DNA of 64,000 bases from Candidatus Heimdallarchaeota archaeon (GCA_020353515.1 CP070695.1:3823908-3887907); one strand, 5' to 3'; positions 57,160 to 64,000 are shown, counted from the stretch's first letter. Made by a program: numbers and translations. Notes: a model not told the origin generated them from the sequence alone.

Positions 57160-57909
57160 TTATTTCGGTTTTTTTGTTTTTACCCTTGTTTTCGGGATCT
57201 TAGTTTTAATATCATTAAAAATAGGTGGGGGAATAACTTTTTTCTTTACAGGGGATTTTATATGAATTTTTGGTGGGGGTGGTTGGTTTACCACGTTTTT
57301 CTGTTTCTTTTTACCTCCCTTAGTAGAATATTGGATTGAGGGTGTTTTTGGGATTTTATCTTTAAGTATTGGTGGGAGTTGGTTAATAACATTTTTTTGT
57401 CCTTTTTTTGCACCCATAGTAGGAGATTGGATTATGGTGTCTTGGGGCATTTTTTTGTGATTTTTCGGGGGCGGAGGCTTGTTTATTGTATCAGATAATT
57501 CTTTTTTTGAATGAACTACTCCTGTTGAACGAGGAATCGTACCGATTTTATAAACTTGTTTAGGGGTAGGAGTTTTCTTATTAAATTGTGACTTTTTTTG
57601 AACATTTTTTGGAATTAATCCTATATTCGTGGGAGATTTGGTTTCGTAAGGAAGAGAATTATTTATTGGAGGAGAAACATTTGAGTCAATAGACTCTTTT
57701 TTAGTTTGGTCAGAACTACCATATTTTGAGGGTAGTTTTATTCCATCCTTTGGAATTCTTCCTCTCGCCTTTGGGGGAGGGAGTTCAAATGATTTACCAT
57801 TAAAACTGGTTGGTGTCTTTTGTTTGATCTCTTGCACTCTTAAACTCACTGGAATTTTACTTTTGATATTATCTCTAGGCTTTTTCTTACGAATCTTATG
57901 TCTGGCCAA
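57160..57909 (-). CDS. Lys/Pro-rich, basic, probably disordered protein
   Basis: 249 aa dominated by K/P/S/T/Q/N with several PPP tracts; TTG start. Confidence 0.65.
   Translation of the reverse strand: MARHKIRKKKPRDNIKSKIPVSLRVQEIKQKTPTSFNGKSFELPPPKARGRIPKDGIKLPSKYGSSDQTKKESIDSNVSPPINNSLPYETKSPTNIGLIPKNVQKKSQFNKKTPTPKQVYKIGTIPRSTGVVHSKKELSDTINKPPPPKNHKKMPQDTIIQSPTMGAKKGQKNVINQLPPILKDKIPKTPSIQYSTKGGKKKQKNVVNQPPPPKIHIKSPVKKKVIPPPIFNDIKTKIPKTRVKTKKPK
57274..57432 (-). repeat. Intragenic imperfect repeat, 32-aa period
   Basis: IQSPTMGAKKGQKNVINQLPP (57370-57432) vs IQYSTKGGKKKQKNVVNQPPP (57274-57336). Confidence 0.7.
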
Positions 57910-58012: not shown

Positions 58013-58597
58013 TTACCTACTAAGTGAAAATCCTATTCCTGAAAAGAGAAAGAATAAACCATAGAGAACTCCAATTAGATCAGTAGCAAATAATCCAGTT
58101 AATAAGAATAAAATACCAAACACAAAAAAAGTGAATAGTGCCGTCCATTCGGCAGACGGCCCTCTCTCAGACTGGGAGGTTAATCTAATAAATTTGTATC
58201 GTGTGAAACTTCGGATTAAAAGGGCTATCGATACAGCAAGATAAGGAAATGCCAAGATTGAGGCAAGGGTTATTTGTAGCTGAATAAAATTCTCTGATGG
58301 TATAATCTCAATATTAAATGTTAACAATGCTGCTTGTCCAGGAGGAAAAAACGGACTAGCCAGTAAAACGCATAACGGAATGATATTTGCCAATGAAAAG
58401 AAGTATATTTCATTTAAAGTAGCTTTTACGTCTATATAGTATAATAGTCTTAAGAAATAGAAAATTGTGATCGTAGTATAGAATGTTAAAAATATCAGAC
58501 TTAATGCAATATTATCCTCATCTCTAATGAAAAAAAAGATACTTGCTGCAAGACCCATGAGGAAAACAAAATAGGCAATTGAATGTCGTGAAACGAT
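58013..58597 (-). CDS. Polytopic membrane protein, apparent paralog of the TM domain of the upstream RING protein (possible ATC start at 58597; first ATG at 58558)
   Basis: GGAGGT lies 7 nt before an in-frame ATC; colinear motif matches to 58603-59760 (see findings). Confidence 0.7.
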   Translation of the reverse strand: MVSRHSIAYFVFLMGLAASIFFFIRDEDNIALSLIFLTFYTTITIFYFLRLLYYIDVKATLNEIYFFSLANIIPLCVLLASPFFPPGQAALLTFNIEIIPSENFIQLQITLASILAFPYLAVSIALLIRSFTRYKFIRLTSQSERGPSAEWTALFTFFVFGILFLLTGLFATDLIGVLYGLFFLFSGIGFSLSR

Positions 58598-58602
58598 CCT
58601 GA

Positions 58603-59760
58603 TTACCTCCAGCGGCTATTTAAATGATTATTTTGATACATTTTAATTAATTTCTGATAACTTTTCCCAGAAAGCCGATACATTTTCTCTGTTGAAATTT
58701 CTTTATTACAACGGGAGCAGATATTCGCTACACTCAACCATTTCTCTAGTTCATGGGAATGTGCTGGATGTCCGCAATGGGGGCATATAACAACTCGCTT
58801 ATTAGCCTCTGTAGGAAATTCATAGCAGAAAATGCAGCGAAAATCATCATCTGTTAAGTGTTGACCTATAGGTATGAGTTTTGAAAGAATAGCTGGAGGT
58901 ATTTTCTCTATACGGGTTATATTTACCCCTGTGTCTATTCCTGGAACAATATTCATTGTTGATTGAGATGAGGCTCGTTCCCTGTTCAATATTTCACGTG
59001 AACTTGGTCGTACTGCAGTTGGTAACGAATTGAAAGAGGATTGTGGCTGTCTACTTGATTGTGAAGATGTTTGAGGTGCTCTAGTTCGATTTAACTGCCT
59101 AGGCAATGATCTTTGCGTTGCCCCACGAATGGGTATTCGACGGATTGGTACTAATATGACCTTTAATACATAATGCTGTACAAATAGAATAGAACTAATA
59201 GAAATAAACCCTAATCCACTTAGTTCTATGGATCCTGTCTGGATCCAGTAGAAACTTAAACTTAAAAACATCCCAACGTTATATAGAATAATTAATTCAT
59301 TCTGATACTTCTTTCTAGAGATGAATATTAATGGATAAAGACCAGAATAATATCTTCGGATGAGTAATAAAAGAAAAATGAAGGGTGGTAAAACAAAAAC
59401 TACGCTAAATAGATTTAGAAACAAAAAAAATCTATCTATATTGAGAAAATTAATATCAAGTGTCATTTCAAGAATATATGCTTGAAGAATTCCATCTTCT
59501 CCTAGTGATGCATATTGAGCGAGGAATGTTCCTCCTAAAGCAATCAACGAAGGAATTAAGATGAATACTGCAGATGCAATTGGTGCATTAAAACGTTGAA
59601 AGTATTGCCACTCTTCAATAAATTTGATTGATAGTACGATTACTGAAGTGATATAAAGGATGGTTAGAGCGACTTCTGTCTGTTGTTCTGTAATTAATGT
59701 GAGTACTGCAAAAACGAATCCTACAGCACAAATGGAAAGATATACATTCCGCCTAACCAA
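58603..59760 (-). CDS. Membrane-anchored RING-type E3 ligase candidate
   Basis: ~6-7 N-terminal TM helices, S/Q/R-rich linker, CIFC-x13-CPHC-GHPA-HSHE-LEKW-x6-CSRC. Confidence 0.8.
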   Translation of the reverse strand: MVRRNVYLSICAVGFVFAVLTLITEQQTEVALTILYITSVIVLSIKFIEEWQYFQRFNAPIASAVFILIPSLIALGGTFLAQYASLGEDGILQAYILEMTLDINFLNIDRFFLFLNLFSVVFVLPPFIFLLLLIRRYYSGLYPLIFISRKKYQNELIILYNVGMFLSLSFYWIQTGSIELSGLGFISISSILFVQHYVLKVILVPIRRIPIRGATQRSLPRQLNRTRAPQTSSQSSRQPQSSFNSLPTAVRPSSREILNRERASSQSTMNIVPGIDTGVNITRIEKIPPAILSKLIPIGQHLTDDDFRCIFCYEFPTEANKRVVICPHCGHPAHSHELEKWLSVANICSRCNKEISTEKMYRLSGKSYQKLIKMYQNNHLNSRWR

Positions 59761-59778
59761 CTAGATTTCAACCTCATA

Positions 59779-60687
59779 CTACTTTTCATGATCATATTCT
59801 AAAAACATACGGCCTTTCTCCTCTGTAAGAGGAAGGAGCGTATTTATCAATTCAGGAAGACTTCCTAAGGGACAATTCAATACCATATACTGGGGCTCTT
59901 CCCAAGTTTTCATATCTTCCTTTAATCGAAAGATTTTGAAACCATAAGAACCACTTGAAATCTTTGTAGGGTCAATAACTAAAGCAATGGGGGCAGTAAT
60001 TTGTGAATTACGTGCTCCAAGCCGTTGATACCGAACTTGAGTCTCATAATCCGTTTGACTCATGAATGCTCCGTATGAAGGATGAGAGTGATACCATCCA
60101 AGAATAAGTTGATTTTTATTATGAGATTTAATCTCATTATAAACTCTAACCATAGATTGTGGGTCATTAATTTGGGTATTCACATTTGTGCCGTGGCCAA
60201 TCGGGAAAGCATCTTCAATAACTAAACAGGCTAATGGTGTATCATTACTTTCTATATGACCTGTAAGGAGACCTATTACCTCTATCCAATTATTTTGGGG
60301 TACATCTGGATTCGCATATTTTAATGCGTGCAATGCTAATTTTATATAGGCTTTAAGATGAATTTTCACTCGTGAAGGCTCTGATTCGGGATTTAAGTTG
60401 TTCAAACTTAACTCAACACTTTTTGTGGCATCTAGGGCTTTAATTTGTTCCTTTTTTTTGATAAAATCAGATTTAGGAATATTTTTTTCATCTGAATTTG
60501 AAGAAATTAAATAAGAGGGATTTATTTGTATTTCTTTGCCTGTAAAACTTTCAAAATCTGCATTAGGTTTATATTTGAATGCAGGAAATTTTAAAGTAAA
60601 AGAGAAAGTCTCTGGATCAAAGGTTAGAGCAAGATCTCTAAGCAGCAATTCAAAAATATTTTGTAGATCCTTTTTCTCTTTTGACAT
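59779..60687 (-). CDS. JAMM/MPN+ metalloprotease (Rpn11/CSN5-like deconjugase)
   Basis: EVIGLL...GWYHSHPSYGAFMSQTD (E...HxH-x7-S-x2-D), ALVIDP. Confidence 0.92.
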   Translation of the reverse strand: MSKEKKDLQNIFELLLRDLALTFDPETFSFTLKFPAFKYKPNADFESFTGKEIQINPSYLISSNSDEKNIPKSDFIKKKEQIKALDATKSVELSLNNLNPESEPSRVKIHLKAYIKLALHALKYANPDVPQNNWIEVIGLLTGHIESNDTPLACLVIEDAFPIGHGTNVNTQINDPQSMVRVYNEIKSHNKNQLILGWYHSHPSYGAFMSQTDYETQVRYQRLGARNSQITAPIALVIDPTKISSGSYGFKIFRLKEDMKTWEEPQYMVLNCPLGSLPELINTLLPLTEEKGRMFLEYDHEK

Positions 60688-60718
60688 TTTCTAACCCATC
60701 GCTCATTAATCTTAATTC

Positions 60719-61246
60719 TCACCACTTCTTATTCGCATATTTTTTTGTAATCTTGCGAGCTTTTGTCATGAAATTCTTTCTATTGCTCAAATATTCTTGA
60801 GCTGCCTTTCTATTGAATACATCATGCGGATTAGTGTAAGCAGTATCAATATTGAACATCGCAAGGATTGAATAAATTATTGTTCCAATATTCTTTGATG
60901 GTGACCAACCATCTGGTCTACCAATTAGGTCAGGATCAACCAGTGCTAAACAAATGTTCCGTTTTCCCTTATACTCATCAGGTTTCGGCCAGAAGTTCGG
61001 ATGCCAGATTGGTGTATGCAAACGAACGAATGGGGGAGAATAGGGATAATTTGGGCCAAATTTGATTTCTAGCTTAAATTTTCCTTTCTCATATGGAGTC
61101 CCTTTAGGCCCCTCTAGAAGGACTGCAAGGTGTTCGACCGATTTTTTCCCACCTGGAAATGCTTTAACTTGTTTTATGGTTTTTTGTTTGTATAACTTCT
61201 TTAATTGATTATAATCATCAGCAATCCTCTTAATACGTATGGACAT
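60719..61246 (-). CDS. Ubiquitin-conjugating enzyme E2
   Basis: GPKGTPYEKGKF, YPYSPP, IWHPN...ICL, WSP. Confidence 0.95.
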   Translation of the reverse strand: MSIRIKRIADDYNQLKKLYKQKTIKQVKAFPGGKKSVEHLAVLLEGPKGTPYEKGKFKLEIKFGPNYPYSPPFVRLHTPIWHPNFWPKPDEYKGKRNICLALVDPDLIGRPDGWSPSKNIGTIIYSILAMFNIDTAYTNPHDVFNRKAAQEYLSNRKNFMTKARKITKKYANKKW

Positions 61247-61263
61247 GTAATTTTACCTCCTGT

Positions 61264-62508
61264 TTATATGAATTTCAAGCTTAAATAGATCTGAGTGCCA
61301 TCTTCAAATCCTGTGACTAAGATAGTCTCATAATTACGAAGTTTAGCCTCAGAGAGGTTTAATTTCCAATCGATCTCATTGACCTCAGAAGTGTCAATTC
61401 GAAAGATGCTTGGGGGGAAATCTGGGTCGATTAGGTATTTTTTTTCTTGTGCCAATTTTGTTACAATTTTCTTCAATAGAAAGTTTGGCTTGACTTTTAT
61501 TCTATAGAGAGGAGCACGAGTATTTCCACACATGGTGCAATTTGAATTCCTCGGTTTTTCCATCTCATAGAATTTCCCAGTCAGTCCATTATAGATCACA
61601 TAATTTAATTGAAGAGAACCTAACTTCTTTTCATTTTTGGGGGTGTGTATATGGTGAAGGATTTTCACTGCTTCTTGAGATTGTAATGAGGCCATTACAC
61701 AATTAATCGTGATTACTGTGGCTTCATGATTATCAACTATTTGAATAACCTGATCTGTTGAGAATGGTTGAGACTCTGGAAAATAGGCTTTGAGTAAGGT
61801 ATTTGCATATTCCCTAACTGCACTGATTTCTTTTGGTTTCAATATATCAACAGGCCGTCCATGATCCTGTTCAAATTGTAATTGCCCTTTTAAGATACAA
61901 TGTGCTGGTTTTCGTGGCACACCAACTAACGTACAAGCACCTAACTGATCCTGTTCACGTTCAGTTAATGGATCACATTCTAAACAAGCGTTACTGAAGG
62001 GAAACATGCAATAGACATGACCATTGTAAGCTGCTGTTCCTGCATCAATTAAGGGTTTATGATTGTGAACAGCTCTTCGATTTAGTTCGGATCGGGCCTC
62101 AATTGAGTCTAAACCCGCGATAAAAAGATCTGCTTCTTGATAAAGACGGGGAGGAAGGTTTTGCAAAGCACAATTATATGCTTCAATTGAAATAAAAGGA
62201 TTCATTTCTCGAAGTCGTTTAGCAGCAAATTCTGCCTTAGACACTCCTTCTGGTGCTCCAATAAATAATACTTGTCGATTAAGGTTAGAATATTCAACTG
62301 TATCAAGATCAACAAGAATTAATTTTCCAACACTGACCATTGCCAAGTTTTTTGCAACTTCAACCCCTAATCCACCAATTCCGACAATTAAAACAGTACT
62401 TCGCTTTAAAGTTTCTTGTTTCCATCCTGGAAGGCGAAATTGACGATCAAAACGTCTTTTTTCTTCATCAGTGAATTCTTCACTTGTGAAATCTGATACA
62501 TTTGACAT
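61264..62508 (-). CDS. Ubl-activating enzyme E1 (UBA3/UBA2-like, with catalytic Cys domain and C-terminal ubiquitin-fold-like domain)
   Basis: RFDRQ, GIGGLG, DLDTVEYSNLNRQ, GLDSIEAR, CLEC, ACTLVGVPRKPAHC, CTMC. Confidence 0.93.
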   Translation of the reverse strand: MSNVSDFTSEEFTDEEKRRFDRQFRLPGWKQETLKRSTVLIVGIGGLGVEVAKNLAMVSVGKLILVDLDTVEYSNLNRQVLFIGAPEGVSKAEFAAKRLREMNPFISIEAYNCALQNLPPRLYQEADLFIAGLDSIEARSELNRRAVHNHKPLIDAGTAAYNGHVYCMFPFSNACLECDPLTEREQDQLGACTLVGVPRKPAHCILKGQLQFEQDHGRPVDILKPKEISAVREYANTLLKAYFPESQPFSTDQVIQIVDNHEATVITINCVMASLQSQEAVKILHHIHTPKNEKKLGSLQLNYVIYNGLTGKFYEMEKPRNSNCTMCGNTRAPLYRIKVKPNFLLKKIVTKLAQEKKYLIDPDFPPSIFRIDTSEVNEIDWKLNLSEAKLRNYETILVTGFEDGTQIYLSLKFI

Positions 62509-62520
62509 TCTTACTCAACT

Positions 62521-62868
62521 TCAGTAGTAGATTCCTGCTGTTGAAACAGGGATAATCAAGCATTCTAAACCATTTTCAATATCATAATTAGATAGCACAT
62601 CATCACTATCTAGAGTACGGCCACCGATAGAAATATGAAAATCCTGTGGATAAAGACCAAATATTCCTCCAAGTGTTTCTTTTAATTCCGAAACACCCAT
62701 TTCAGGATTGACAGAGAGTTTTTCAATTTTTTCACCTGGTCCTATTGTAGATCTAAAGAATAGGGTTATTTGAGTCCCACTTGGTACTTTTGTTCTCATT
62801 TGAGTTTCTAGAATCTCTTCTTCCTCTTCTTCGATTTCCAATTCATCAAAATCCTCATTTTCAGACAT
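62521..62868 (-). CDS. Ubiquitin-like protein 2 (acidic N-tail; ends STAG-IYY, pro-form)
   Basis: GRTLD-x4-LSNY beta-grasp motif; GGAG upstream of ATG 62868 gives 115 aa, the same length as its paralog. Confidence 0.88.
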   Translation of the reverse strand: MSENEDFDELEIEEEEEEILETQMRTKVPSGTQITLFFRSTIGPGEKIEKLSVNPEMGVSELKETLGGIFGLYPQDFHISIGGRTLDSDDVLSNYDIENGLECLIIPVSTAGIYY

Positions 62869-63044
62869 TGAATAATACTCCATTTCCATTCTTTTTGTTG
62901 GAAGCATTTTACAATATTTTATCTGGTAAAAGAGCTTTATAGACTGACTCTTTACTGGTGAATAATTATCCGTTTCAATCATTTTAATTATTCCCAATTA
63001 CTGTTTGAGTACTTTTTCGAGGAATTTTAATAATGAATATTGGG

Positions 63045-63239
63045 TCAGATACAAATTTCGTTTGATTGAATTACTCCAAGAGACTGAAGAATCCAAAGAT
63101 TTGCTCGGATATAATAATCGGTTGCTGAGATTATGATATCTAAATCATTACTAGACCCATGATGGATTCGCATCTTTTTCTTCGCATTTTCACGTTCATA
63201 CATTGCTTCAACTATAGATTTGACTAAACTTTCAATCAT
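63045..63239 (-). CDS. Small hypothetical protein between the two Ubl genes
   Basis: 64-aa ORF on the operon strand filling the gap; no recognisable motif. Confidence 0.4.
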   Translation of the reverse strand: MIESLVKSIVEAMYERENAKKKMRIHHGSSNDLDIIISATDYYIRANLWILQSLGVIQSNEICI

Positions 63240-63326
63240 AACCGTTATTCCATAGCTTTTCTGAGGGGATGAGAAAGAGAGGATGATTACTTTCTCTCAA
63301 TTTACGAAAGTAAGAAAGAAAAGCGT

Positions 63327-63674
63327 TCATCCTGCTGTACTATGGGGAATCAATAGAATTTCGTCACCATTATCAACGCCATAGTCGCCGATAGGAGCAG
63401 ATTCATCTAAGGTGCGACCAGCATGACTTAAGTGAAAATCATTGGGATTCAAGCCAAATATGTTAGCTAAGGTGTCTCTGACATCTCTAACTGGTGTATT
63501 TTCACCTACACTAAGTTTTTCGGTTCGTTCAGGCCCAACGGTAGATTTAAAAAATACATTCTTTTTTGGTCCTGCGGTAATATTTGTTATAGGAGTCTTA
63601 GATTGTGTAGGGGTTTTAGATTGAATTGTTGTCTGTTCTTCTACATCAAAGTCTAAATCTTCAAAATCACTCAT
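63327..63674 (-). CDS. Ubiquitin-like protein 1 (acidic N-tail; ends STAG-stop, mature form)
   Basis: HAGRTLDESAPIGDYGV aligns with ubiquitin FAGKQLEDGRTLSDYNI; exposed terminal Gly. Confidence 0.9.
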   Translation of the reverse strand: MSDFEDLDFDVEEQTTIQSKTPTQSKTPITNITAGPKKNVFFKSTVGPERTEKLSVGENTPVRDVRDTLANIFGLNPNDFHLSHAGRTLDESAPIGDYGVDNGDEILLIPHSTAG

Positions 63675-63850: not shown

Positions 63851-64000
63851 TTGCCACAAAATGCTCAAAATATTAAAATATCAAATCGTGCGTGGGAACT
63901 TCTACGATGGGCAAAATTTGAGCTTGATGCAAAGTCTTACAGTGATGTTATCATCTTAATGAATAGTAGAATAAAAAATCGGTCAAAAAGTCTTGAAAAA
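63851..64000 (+). CDS. 3'-partial ribbon-helix-helix-like protein divergent from the Ubl operon (not in the ORF track)
   Basis: GAGGT RBS, then TTG: MPQNAQNIKISNRAWELLRWAKFELDAKSYSDVIILM..., open to the window end. Confidence 0.65.
   Translation, partial: MPQNAQNIKISNRAWELLRWAKFELDAKSYSDVIILMNSRIKNRSKSLEK

Follow-up and report, generated by a model that had tools for sequence, protein, structure and literature searches.

A 64,000-nucleotide (nt) stretch of the genome of a Candidatus Heimdallarchaeota archaeon (GCA_020353515.1 CP070695.1:3823908-3887907; hereafter the window) was analysed computationally to characterize a minus-strand operon at positions 58013-63674 that encodes two ubiquitin-like proteins (Ubl1 and Ubl2), a predicted activating enzyme (E1), conjugating enzyme (E2) and JAMM protease, and a polytopic membrane protein with a predicted RING-type C-terminal domain, referred to here as TM-RING (TM, transmembrane). 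Eight co-oriented open reading frames (ORFs) run in the order Ubl1, small ORF, Ubl2, E1, E2, JAMM, TM-RING and a second membrane protein, TM2, with intergenic gaps of 87, 47, 12, 17, 31, 18 and 44 nt:

63327..63674, minus strand: Ubl1, 115 amino acids (aa); Pfam ubiquitin, 31.2 bits, above the cut-off
63045..63239, minus strand: small ORF, 64 aa; no Pfam match
62521..62868, minus strand: Ubl2, ~115 aa when read from Met44; Pfam ubiquitin, 20 bits, below the cut-off
61264..62508, minus strand: E1, 414 aa; ThiF, 180.9 bits
60719..61246, minus strand: E2, 175 aa; UQ_con, 94.5 bits
59779..60687, minus strand: JAMM/MPN+ metalloprotease, 302 aa; JAB, 57.5 bits
59140..59760, minus strand: TM-RING membrane domain, residues 1-207; six TM helices in the AlphaFold2 model
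58873..59139, minus strand: TM-RING disordered linker, approximately residues 208-296; predicted local distance difference test (pLDDT) score below 50 for residues 207-282
58606..58872, minus strand: TM-RING C-terminal RING/U-box-fold domain, residues 297-385; assigned from its predicted fold and from homology to small RING finger proteins (srfps)
58013..58597, minus strand: TM2 membrane protein, ~194 aa when read from an in-frame ATC; found in relatives by a hidden Markov model (HMM) of the operon; no Pfam match

These coordinates and gaps agree with a preliminary description of the locus made from its sequence, which had noted a same-strand run with gaps of at most ~45 nt from Ubl2 onward. 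Its central proposal, a self-contained Ubl-E1-E2-JAMM operon whose sole RING protein is polytopic, is borne out by the ORFs, the Pfam matches, the structural model and the gene linkage described below.

Modifiers and enzymes

Ubl1 has a ubiquitin-fold core, preceded by an acidic tail at the N-terminus that bears two KTP motifs and followed by the mature end ...IPHSTAG; in Ubl2, ...IPVSTAG is followed by a tail, IYY, whose removal would be required. The two proteins are paralogs (43-48% identity); the solved proteins closest to Ubl1 are ubiquitin and the Caldiarchaeum Ubl, and UFM1 is absent among the 60 Ubl matches listed. The earlier view that the modifiers do not end in Gly-Gly (GG) holds, as both end in Ala-Gly within a conserved STAG; family-wide, the C-terminus follows the pattern x-S-T-A-G, with rare SIAG and SRAG forms, and a tail of 1-7 residues is either present or absent. 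A second conserved feature is the N-terminal tail, in which an acidic patch of the F-D-E-D-L type is followed by KTP motifs (mostly two) and then by GKK. This signature was found in all eight distant loci checked, from Heimdall-type through Loki-type operons (submitters' taxon labels are heterogeneous, and classes are therefore stated here as 'Heimdall-type' and 'Loki-type' only), and nearly every Ubl tail contains two copies of K-x-P where 0.1-0.7 would be expected. The signature was read at 62790-63674 of the window, minus strand, and in the Ubl genes of L045-L057. It could represent an acceptor lysine, a phosphorylation site or a docking motif; that the K-x-P lysines are acceptor sites, in these tails and in a basic protein encoded downstream of the operon, is speculation.

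Loki-type loci also encode additional Ubl-domain proteins (L051:13672-15414, minus strand; L050:10570-11460, plus strand; L053:2844-3638, minus strand; and equivalents). They include a 580-aa HerA-like ATPase fused to the family's Ubl and ending in a conjugatable ...SSRAG, a 296-aa Ubl-domain protein whose C-terminus is STAG plus a tail, and opposite-strand proteins of ~260-280 aa that contain a Ubl domain without a terminal Gly.

Judged by their motifs and closest relatives, the operon's predicted enzymes are of the canonical ubiquitin type. The E1 has a GIGGLG nucleotide loop (residues 43-48), two CxxC pairs (175-178 and 324-327), and a candidate catalytic cysteine, Cys192 in 'GACTLVG', that aligns with the cysteine of 'PICTL' in UBA1; among solved relatives it scores 123.5 bits with UBA1, 108 with UBA3 (nearly full length), 103 with SAE2 and 57 with UBA5, and its C-terminal extension (~70 aa) may be a ubiquitin-fold domain that would recruit the E2. 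The E2 carries HPN at residues 82-84 and a catalytic Cys99, aligned with the closest solved E2s (UBE2T, Ubc13 and UbcH7), together with two family-specific loop insertions, FWPKPxEYxGxRN before the cysteine and another, after it, that ends in GWSPSK. Its orthologs across classes are 57-91% identical, with both insertions invariant. When the E2 and TM2 were looked up by feature in the ESM Atlas, nothing but Asgard UBC clusters and unnamed archaeal clusters came back. The protease retains Glu136 and an intact H-x-H-x7-S-x2-D motif (HSHPSYGAFMSQTD), and its closest solved proteins are Rpn11, the Caldiarchaeum Rpn11-like protein (6fjv) and CSN5. An N-terminal extension of ~105 aa (residues 1-105) is absent from its Rpn11-type relatives, and the JAB gene encodes 235-326 aa among the operons.

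UFM1 likewise ends in a single Gly after a non-Gly residue, and the eukaryotic UFM1 system acts at a membrane, that of the endoplasmic reticulum (ER), but the UFMylation-type system envisaged in the preliminary description is rejected on the affinities of the E1, the E2 and the protease. The UFM1 pathway uses UBA5, UFC1, UFL1 and UFSP, whereas the operon pairs an E1 of UBA1/UBA3/SAE2 type (123.5 and 108 bits with UBA1 and UBA3 versus 57 with UBA5) with an HPN-bearing UQ_con E2, a JAMM protease rather than a UFSP-type cysteine protease, and a putative ligase (E3) of RING type.

The polytopic membrane protein and its RING-type domain

Hydropathy and the AlphaFold2 model agree on a TM-RING protein of 385 aa consisting of six TM helices (residues 2-207), a linker and a folded C-terminal domain, and all homologs share this architecture. 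The predicted helices span residues 2-23, 28-56, 64-81, 117-139, 150-175 and 180-207 (pLDDT mostly 70-94), with an acidic beta-hairpin loop (82-116) predicted to lie outside. The outside loops contain one K+R and seven D+E, and the segment following the sixth helix contains seven K+R, a charge distribution (N-in/C-in) that places the N-terminus, the linker and the RING domain in the cytoplasm. The linker is rich in Ser, Arg, Thr and Pro and varies in length and sequence among homologs. For the membrane domain, no solved fold match rose above helical noise, and no sequence or structural homology to eukaryotic polytopic RING E3s was detected.

The C-terminal domain, folded alone with 30 homologs, reaches a pLDDT of 89.6 and forms a compact beta-beta-alpha cross-brace in the model. 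All of the top 50 Foldseek matches are RING or U-box domains (best E 1.8e-3); many of them are helix-flanked dimeric RINGs (Rad18, RNF8, Ring1b/Bmi1, TRIM), and a C-terminal helix flanks the domain here. Residues D306, C309, C312, C326, C329, P332, H334, E337, W341, C348 and C351 are invariant across classes, and the candidate zinc ligands are C309, C312, C326, C329, H334, E337, C348 and C351 (the seven Cys/His positions all invariant). Of the residues at the positions that usually contact an E2, Ile310 shows conservation of at least 90% and Trp341 does not vary between classes; within the protein, conservation between classes is highest in the RING domain.

An HMM of the RING domain also matches srfp genes of 82-86 aa (E 1e-12 to 1e-14) in srfp-Ub(GG)-E2-E1 operons of other Asgard families, in which ubiquitin (Ub) ends in TEGG or TTGG. 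The two groups have in common the signature CIxC...CPxCxxPAH...W...CxxC, and 'PAH-x2-H-L-x-E-W' of the srfps aligns with 'PAH-x2-E-L/F-x-x-W' of TM-RING, so that the seemingly missing eighth ligand corresponds to a His-to-Glu replacement at ligand 6. E3 activity has been demonstrated for the Caldiarchaeum srfp (PMC5654768), the sequence of which was not compared with those of the Asgard srfps matched here. In terms of modelled fold and sequence homology, the C-terminal zinc finger is a RING/U-box-fold domain homologous to Asgard srfps, with putative ligase activity.

TM2, which has four or more TM helices, gave a negative result against TM-RING by BLASTP (E 0.88), but an hhalign comparison with the TM-RING family aligned TM2 residues 9-147 with TM-RING residues 3-148 over 138 collinear columns (probability 62.5%, E 7.3e-5), including the common patches 'YY..(H)KATLNE / YY..YNAPLAS' and 'LLIRSFTRYQFIR / LLRRYYSGRYPxIF'. 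This is suggestive of TM2 being a RING-less paralog of the first four helices of TM-RING. The operon HMM finds TM2 in eight loci, all of them Heimdall-type operons, and in none of the Loki-type loci. In one Heimdall-type operon the gene after TM2 (L046:9901-10494, plus strand) encodes a protein of 197 aa that has two TM helices and, at its N-terminus, a zinc ribbon; this protein matches the canonical RING-H2 family zf-RING_2 at 32.5 bits, above the cut-off, and constitutes a second membrane-anchored RING in that cluster.

Distribution, gene boundaries and genomic context

The preliminary description had staked its proposal in part on conserved linkage of the TM-RING gene to E1 and E2 in relatives, and this linkage was recovered at 20 of 20 loci from five or more families of Heimdall-type and Loki-type lineages. 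The JAB gene lies directly 5' of TM-RING in every neighbourhood (20/20), and E2, E1 and Ubl genes are linked wherever the contig allows; at L046 and L047 the E1 or the Ubl-E1 pair stands apart from the E2-JAB-TM-RING block, yet remains linked to it. The arrangement, present in all 20 related loci, cannot be a product of chance. What had been framed as one operon is a real operon, but it belongs to a family present in at least two Asgard classes.

An initial word-based search returned 56 clusters, none with a Pfam domain and all labelled 'hypothetical'. In a library of 1.84 billion representatives that carries no taxon labels, a profile search recovered a closed family of 123 proteins, nearly all of 330-450 aa, accompanied by a few weak matches confined to the RING region and by no flood of RING-family proteins. 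TM-RING matches were present in 154 of 301 sampled Asgard genomes at E <=1e-5, the weakest being small soluble RINGs, and full-length-type matches (E <=1e-20) in ~115 of the 301 by our count. Among these ~115 are 18/20 genomes of the window's own family, most genomes of f3 (26/29 matched at E 1e-5) and of f4 (8/11), and 58/68 of f14; TM-RING was matched in 0/76 of f11. Clustered at 90% identity, the f14-type form gives at least 388 clusters, of which some carry the label Lokiarchaeota, and a single distant cluster carries the label Helarchaeota. The operon occurs as a single copy with a stable gene order, and its distribution, as read from these sequences, looks like a pattern of vertical inheritance. 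Matches to the operon came from sediment-metagenome DNA runs only, and no RNA run was listed among them.

Comparison with relatives bears on three of the gene calls. Ubl2 probably starts at Met44 (62868), which gives a protein of 115 aa that matches Ubl1 in length, because relatives (including L007) agree on this start and the upstream 43 codons are poorly conserved, in close relatives only and at roughly the surrounding nucleotide level. TM2 is probably translated from a non-canonical ATC start: the frame is open and homologous for 13 codons (58559-58597) 5' of the listed ATG, which yields a 181-aa version, and the in-frame ATC at 58597 sits 8 nt after GGAGG and gives the 194 aa found in relatives. 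The small ORF is probably a real, lineage-restricted gene, since its frame is open and its stop position is kept in three close relatives, L026, L029 and L031, at 83, 74 and 46% identity; the core 'YYI-ANLW-LQS' is retained in all three, and the L031 copy (46% identical) is not detectably similar in nucleotide sequence. Most relatives, including the more distant operons, lack the small ORF.

Two further genes flank the operon:

57160..57909, minus strand: Lys/Pro-rich basic protein, 249 aa, conserved downstream of TM2; no Pfam match
63851..64000, plus strand: divergent gene that runs off the window edge, head-to-head with Ubl1 in six relatives

The Lys/Pro-rich protein is disordered, with 60 K+R versus 13 D+E and conserved termini, and contains 13 K-x-P motifs against 7.5 expected (38 of 2,000 shuffles reach 13). 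Its homologs (L006, L008, L009, L031, L038 and L042) lie in the window's own family only, and it is, speculatively, a candidate multi-site substrate or scaffold. The divergent gene is likewise confined to this family; it encodes ~126-149 aa in relatives, opposes Ubl1 in L006, L007, L009, L031, L038 and L042, and is partly N in the genome copy. On the basis of a faint VAPB_antitox match (E 0.0027), it may encode a ribbon-helix-helix-type regulator of the operon.

The host genome, a single 4.94 Mb contig, contains three further E1/E2 sets, and its GG-ending Ubs sit in these other clusters. Enzymes of the STAG operon are only 28-37% identical to those of the GG-Ub systems in the same genome, and the STAG system is therefore regarded as a separate, parallel pathway. 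Among the other sets, L012 (G000:C1:3968000-3985000), ~90 kb away, is the known cluster linked to the endosomal sorting complex required for transport (ESCRT), with Vps28, a UEV-like E2 variant, a KaiC-like ATPase, two Ras/Arf-like (Rab-like) GTPases, an E1, a canonical E2 and a Ub ending in TTGG-FPN. A second set, at L013 (G000:C1:1379000-1390000), groups a Ubl-E1 pair and an E2-JAB pair with a zinc-ribbon protein and a TM protein; its Ubl ends in KGG, and its E2 has similar loops. The third, at L014 (G000:C1:4399000-4409000), consists of a ThiF, a Prok-JAB and a protein weakly resembling an E2.

A candidate membrane-anchored conjugation pathway

We interpret the operon as a dedicated ubiquitin-like conjugation pathway with its ligase in the cytoplasmic membrane, with a probability of roughly 0.68; the biochemical steps, E3 activity, substrates and cellular role are those we infer from the proteins encoded. 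In such a pathway, the JAMM protease would trim C-terminal tails such as the IYY of Ubl2, exposing the Ala-Gly of the STAG Ubls, and would probably also reverse conjugates. The E1 would adenylate the terminal Gly of the Ubl, load it onto Cys192 and hand it to Cys99 of the cognate E2; the charged E2 would then dock on the cytoplasmic RING-type domain, tethered by its long flexible linker to the six-helix membrane domain, and the Ubl would end up on lysines of membrane or membrane-associated proteins chosen by the membrane domain. TM2 may work with that domain in substrate selection in Heimdall-type archaea. With regard to origin, the operon is probably paralogous to the classical compact Asgard operon (srfp-Ub-E2-E1-JAMM), having arisen through fusion of an srfp to a membrane domain, replacement of the terminal GG of Ub by AG and acquisition of the two E2 loops.

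Several observations weigh against this interpretation. All Pfam RING and zinc-ribbon families fall below their cut-offs on the 385-aa protein (best E 0.014), and the RING assignment rests on fold and srfp homology for that reason; the zinc site is non-canonical, with Glu337 at the sixth ligand, normally His or Cys, and a spacing of four residues between ligands 4 and 5. Between classes, TM-RING proteins fall to 20-24% identity, and the membrane domain diverges strongly, with few invariant residues and no recognizable substrate-binding feature. A predicted complex of the E2, the RING domain and two zinc ions, a check suggested in the preliminary description, scored 0.43, against 0.01 for the best of three controls, with at least 97% contact agreement between runs and partner pLDDT of at least 84. 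The mark that it passed is reached by 58 of 80 solved complexes and two of 110 mismatched pairs, but passes scoring <=0.60 comprise just seven of the 80 solved complexes and both of the passing mismatches. Since RING-E2 complexes have already been solved, the pass may reflect model memory or likeness rather than binding, and the support it lends to the interpretation is weak.

Some of the same observations would fit an alternative in which the pathway conjugates the Ubl but TM-RING is an anchor or receptor that localizes the E2, the JAMM protease or the Ubl, or is itself the main target through its linker. The Glu at ligand 6, the sub-threshold Pfam scores and the weak complex prediction could all point to a domain that is not a ligase, the linker is long, disordered and rich in Ser, Arg and Thr, and KTP motifs appear both in the Ubl tails and in the downstream protein; some E2s, such as Ubc9, modify consensus sites without an E3. 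We nevertheless consider this alternative unlikely, because the RING is the best-conserved part of TM-RING and keeps the Ile and Trp of the E2 contact, and because it is homologous to srfps, a class with a proven E3 member (PMC5654768); moreover, the linker of the window's copy has no lysine and would thus be a poor modification target. A membrane ligase could also serve quality control or extraction akin to ER-associated degradation (ERAD), as kin of Hrd1/gp78, with the TM domain, with or without TM2, recognizing or retrotranslocating misfolded membrane or secreted proteins and feeding them to Cdc48 and the proteasome. We regard this as improbable. No Cdc48/p97, Derlin-type or proteasome genes occur in the 20 operon neighbourhoods, the rest of the genome not having been searched for such coupling, and, as the membrane domain has no recognizable relatives, kinship with Hrd1 is neither shown nor excluded.

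Bacterial Ubl-E1-E2-JAB operons serve in defence, and a further reading gives the operon a role against viruses or in conflict, comparable to that of the Cap2/Cap3 of cyclic-oligonucleotide-based antiphage signalling systems or of Bil-type systems, with tagging of invader or host proteins at the membrane. Consistent with such a role, the E1 gives PADLOC 'E1-E2' matches of up to 70.6 bits and the family's Ubl is fused to a HerA-like ATPase in one Loki-type locus. However, the PADLOC matches cover only the generic E1 adenylation domain, the JAB match is marginal, and the E2, the Ubls, TM-RING and TM2 have no PADLOC match at all. The operon is also single-copy, ordered and widespread within families (18/20, 26/29 and 58/68), unlike patchy defence islands, and appears to be vertically inherited; we have therefore rejected the defence reading as highly improbable.

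Compared with the compact archaeal Ub operons (Ub/E1/E2/srfp/Rpn11 of Caldiarchaeum subterraneum, Asgard srfp-Ub-E2-E1 and the reconstituted Helarchaeial E1/E2/RING cascade), the STAG operon contains the same parts, also in operonic arrangement, and in both, JAMM would be expected to process precursors that carry C-terminal extensions (PMC6043591). However, the RING of compact operons is a soluble protein of ~85 aa with His as the sixth ligand, and their Ub ends in GG, whereas here the RING is the C-terminus of a ~385-aa protein with six TM helices and has Glu as the sixth ligand, the modifiers combine STAG with an acidic KTP tail, and the E2 carries two invariant loop insertions. In the archaeal ubiquitin systems published to date, the RINGs are small and soluble and the modifier is GG-ubiquitin (PMC5654768; 10.1101/2023.07.25.550441; PMC9192718), a 2026 review recognizes only a primitive precursor cascade in Asgard archaea (PMC13328587), and a 2026 structural survey does not mention the STAG/TM-RING family (10.64898/2026.10.28.762692). 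A full-text literature search, which did not extend to subscription-journal papers and supplements, found no description of an archaeal polytopic RING, of any prokaryotic integral-membrane RING ligase or of such an operon; the operon is real and is an apparently undescribed, membrane-anchored variant of the archaeal ubiquitin operon.

Among eukaryotic systems, Hrd1/gp78, TRC8/RNF145, RNF121 and Pex2/10/12 likewise join a bundle of membrane helices to a RING in the cytosol, to which a soluble E2 is recruited, and a partner subunit akin to the membrane domain of the E3 itself, as TM2 may be, recalls the multi-subunit Pex2/10/12 and Hrd1 complexes. TM-RING differs from these polytopic E3s in the long disordered linker before its terminal RING and in having a dedicated E1, E2, Ubl and protease encoded alongside, and the resemblance is functional and architectural rather than one of family membership. 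The SUMO pathway is similar in its single dedicated E1 and E2, its C-terminal tails removed by a protease and its flexible N-terminal tail with a lysine motif (at K11 in SUMO2/3), but it uses a ULP/SENP cysteine protease and a GG end instead of JAMM and AG, and the E2 of the operon resembles Ubc9 no more than it resembles other E2s.

A broader reading, which we offer tentatively and consider doubtful, is that Asgard archaea possess a second, membrane-dedicated pathway, comprising a STAG Ubl, a membrane RING ligase and, in Heimdall-type lineages, a RING-less subunit, whose tags would commit membrane proteins to turnover, sorting or extraction. Its KTP/KxP motifs would form a SUMO-like acceptor consensus for chain building and substrate choice. 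Being common to Heimdall-type and Loki-type lineages, the pathway would predate their divergence, and it would be either a forerunner or an independent analogue of eukaryotic membrane E3s of the ERAD, peroxisomal and endosomal kinds. ERAD, the recycling of peroxisomal receptors and endosomal sorting all depend on integral-membrane RING ligases. With five soluble parts, one or two membrane proteins and clear catalytic residues, and with counterparts in Loki-type lineages, the system is open to direct biochemical reconstitution. If TM-RING is a working membrane ligase, ubiquitin-type tagging would have been coupled to membranes before eukaryotes, and such a ligase would operate alongside an ESCRT-linked Ub system in the same cells, which would bear on the origin of endomembrane proteostasis.

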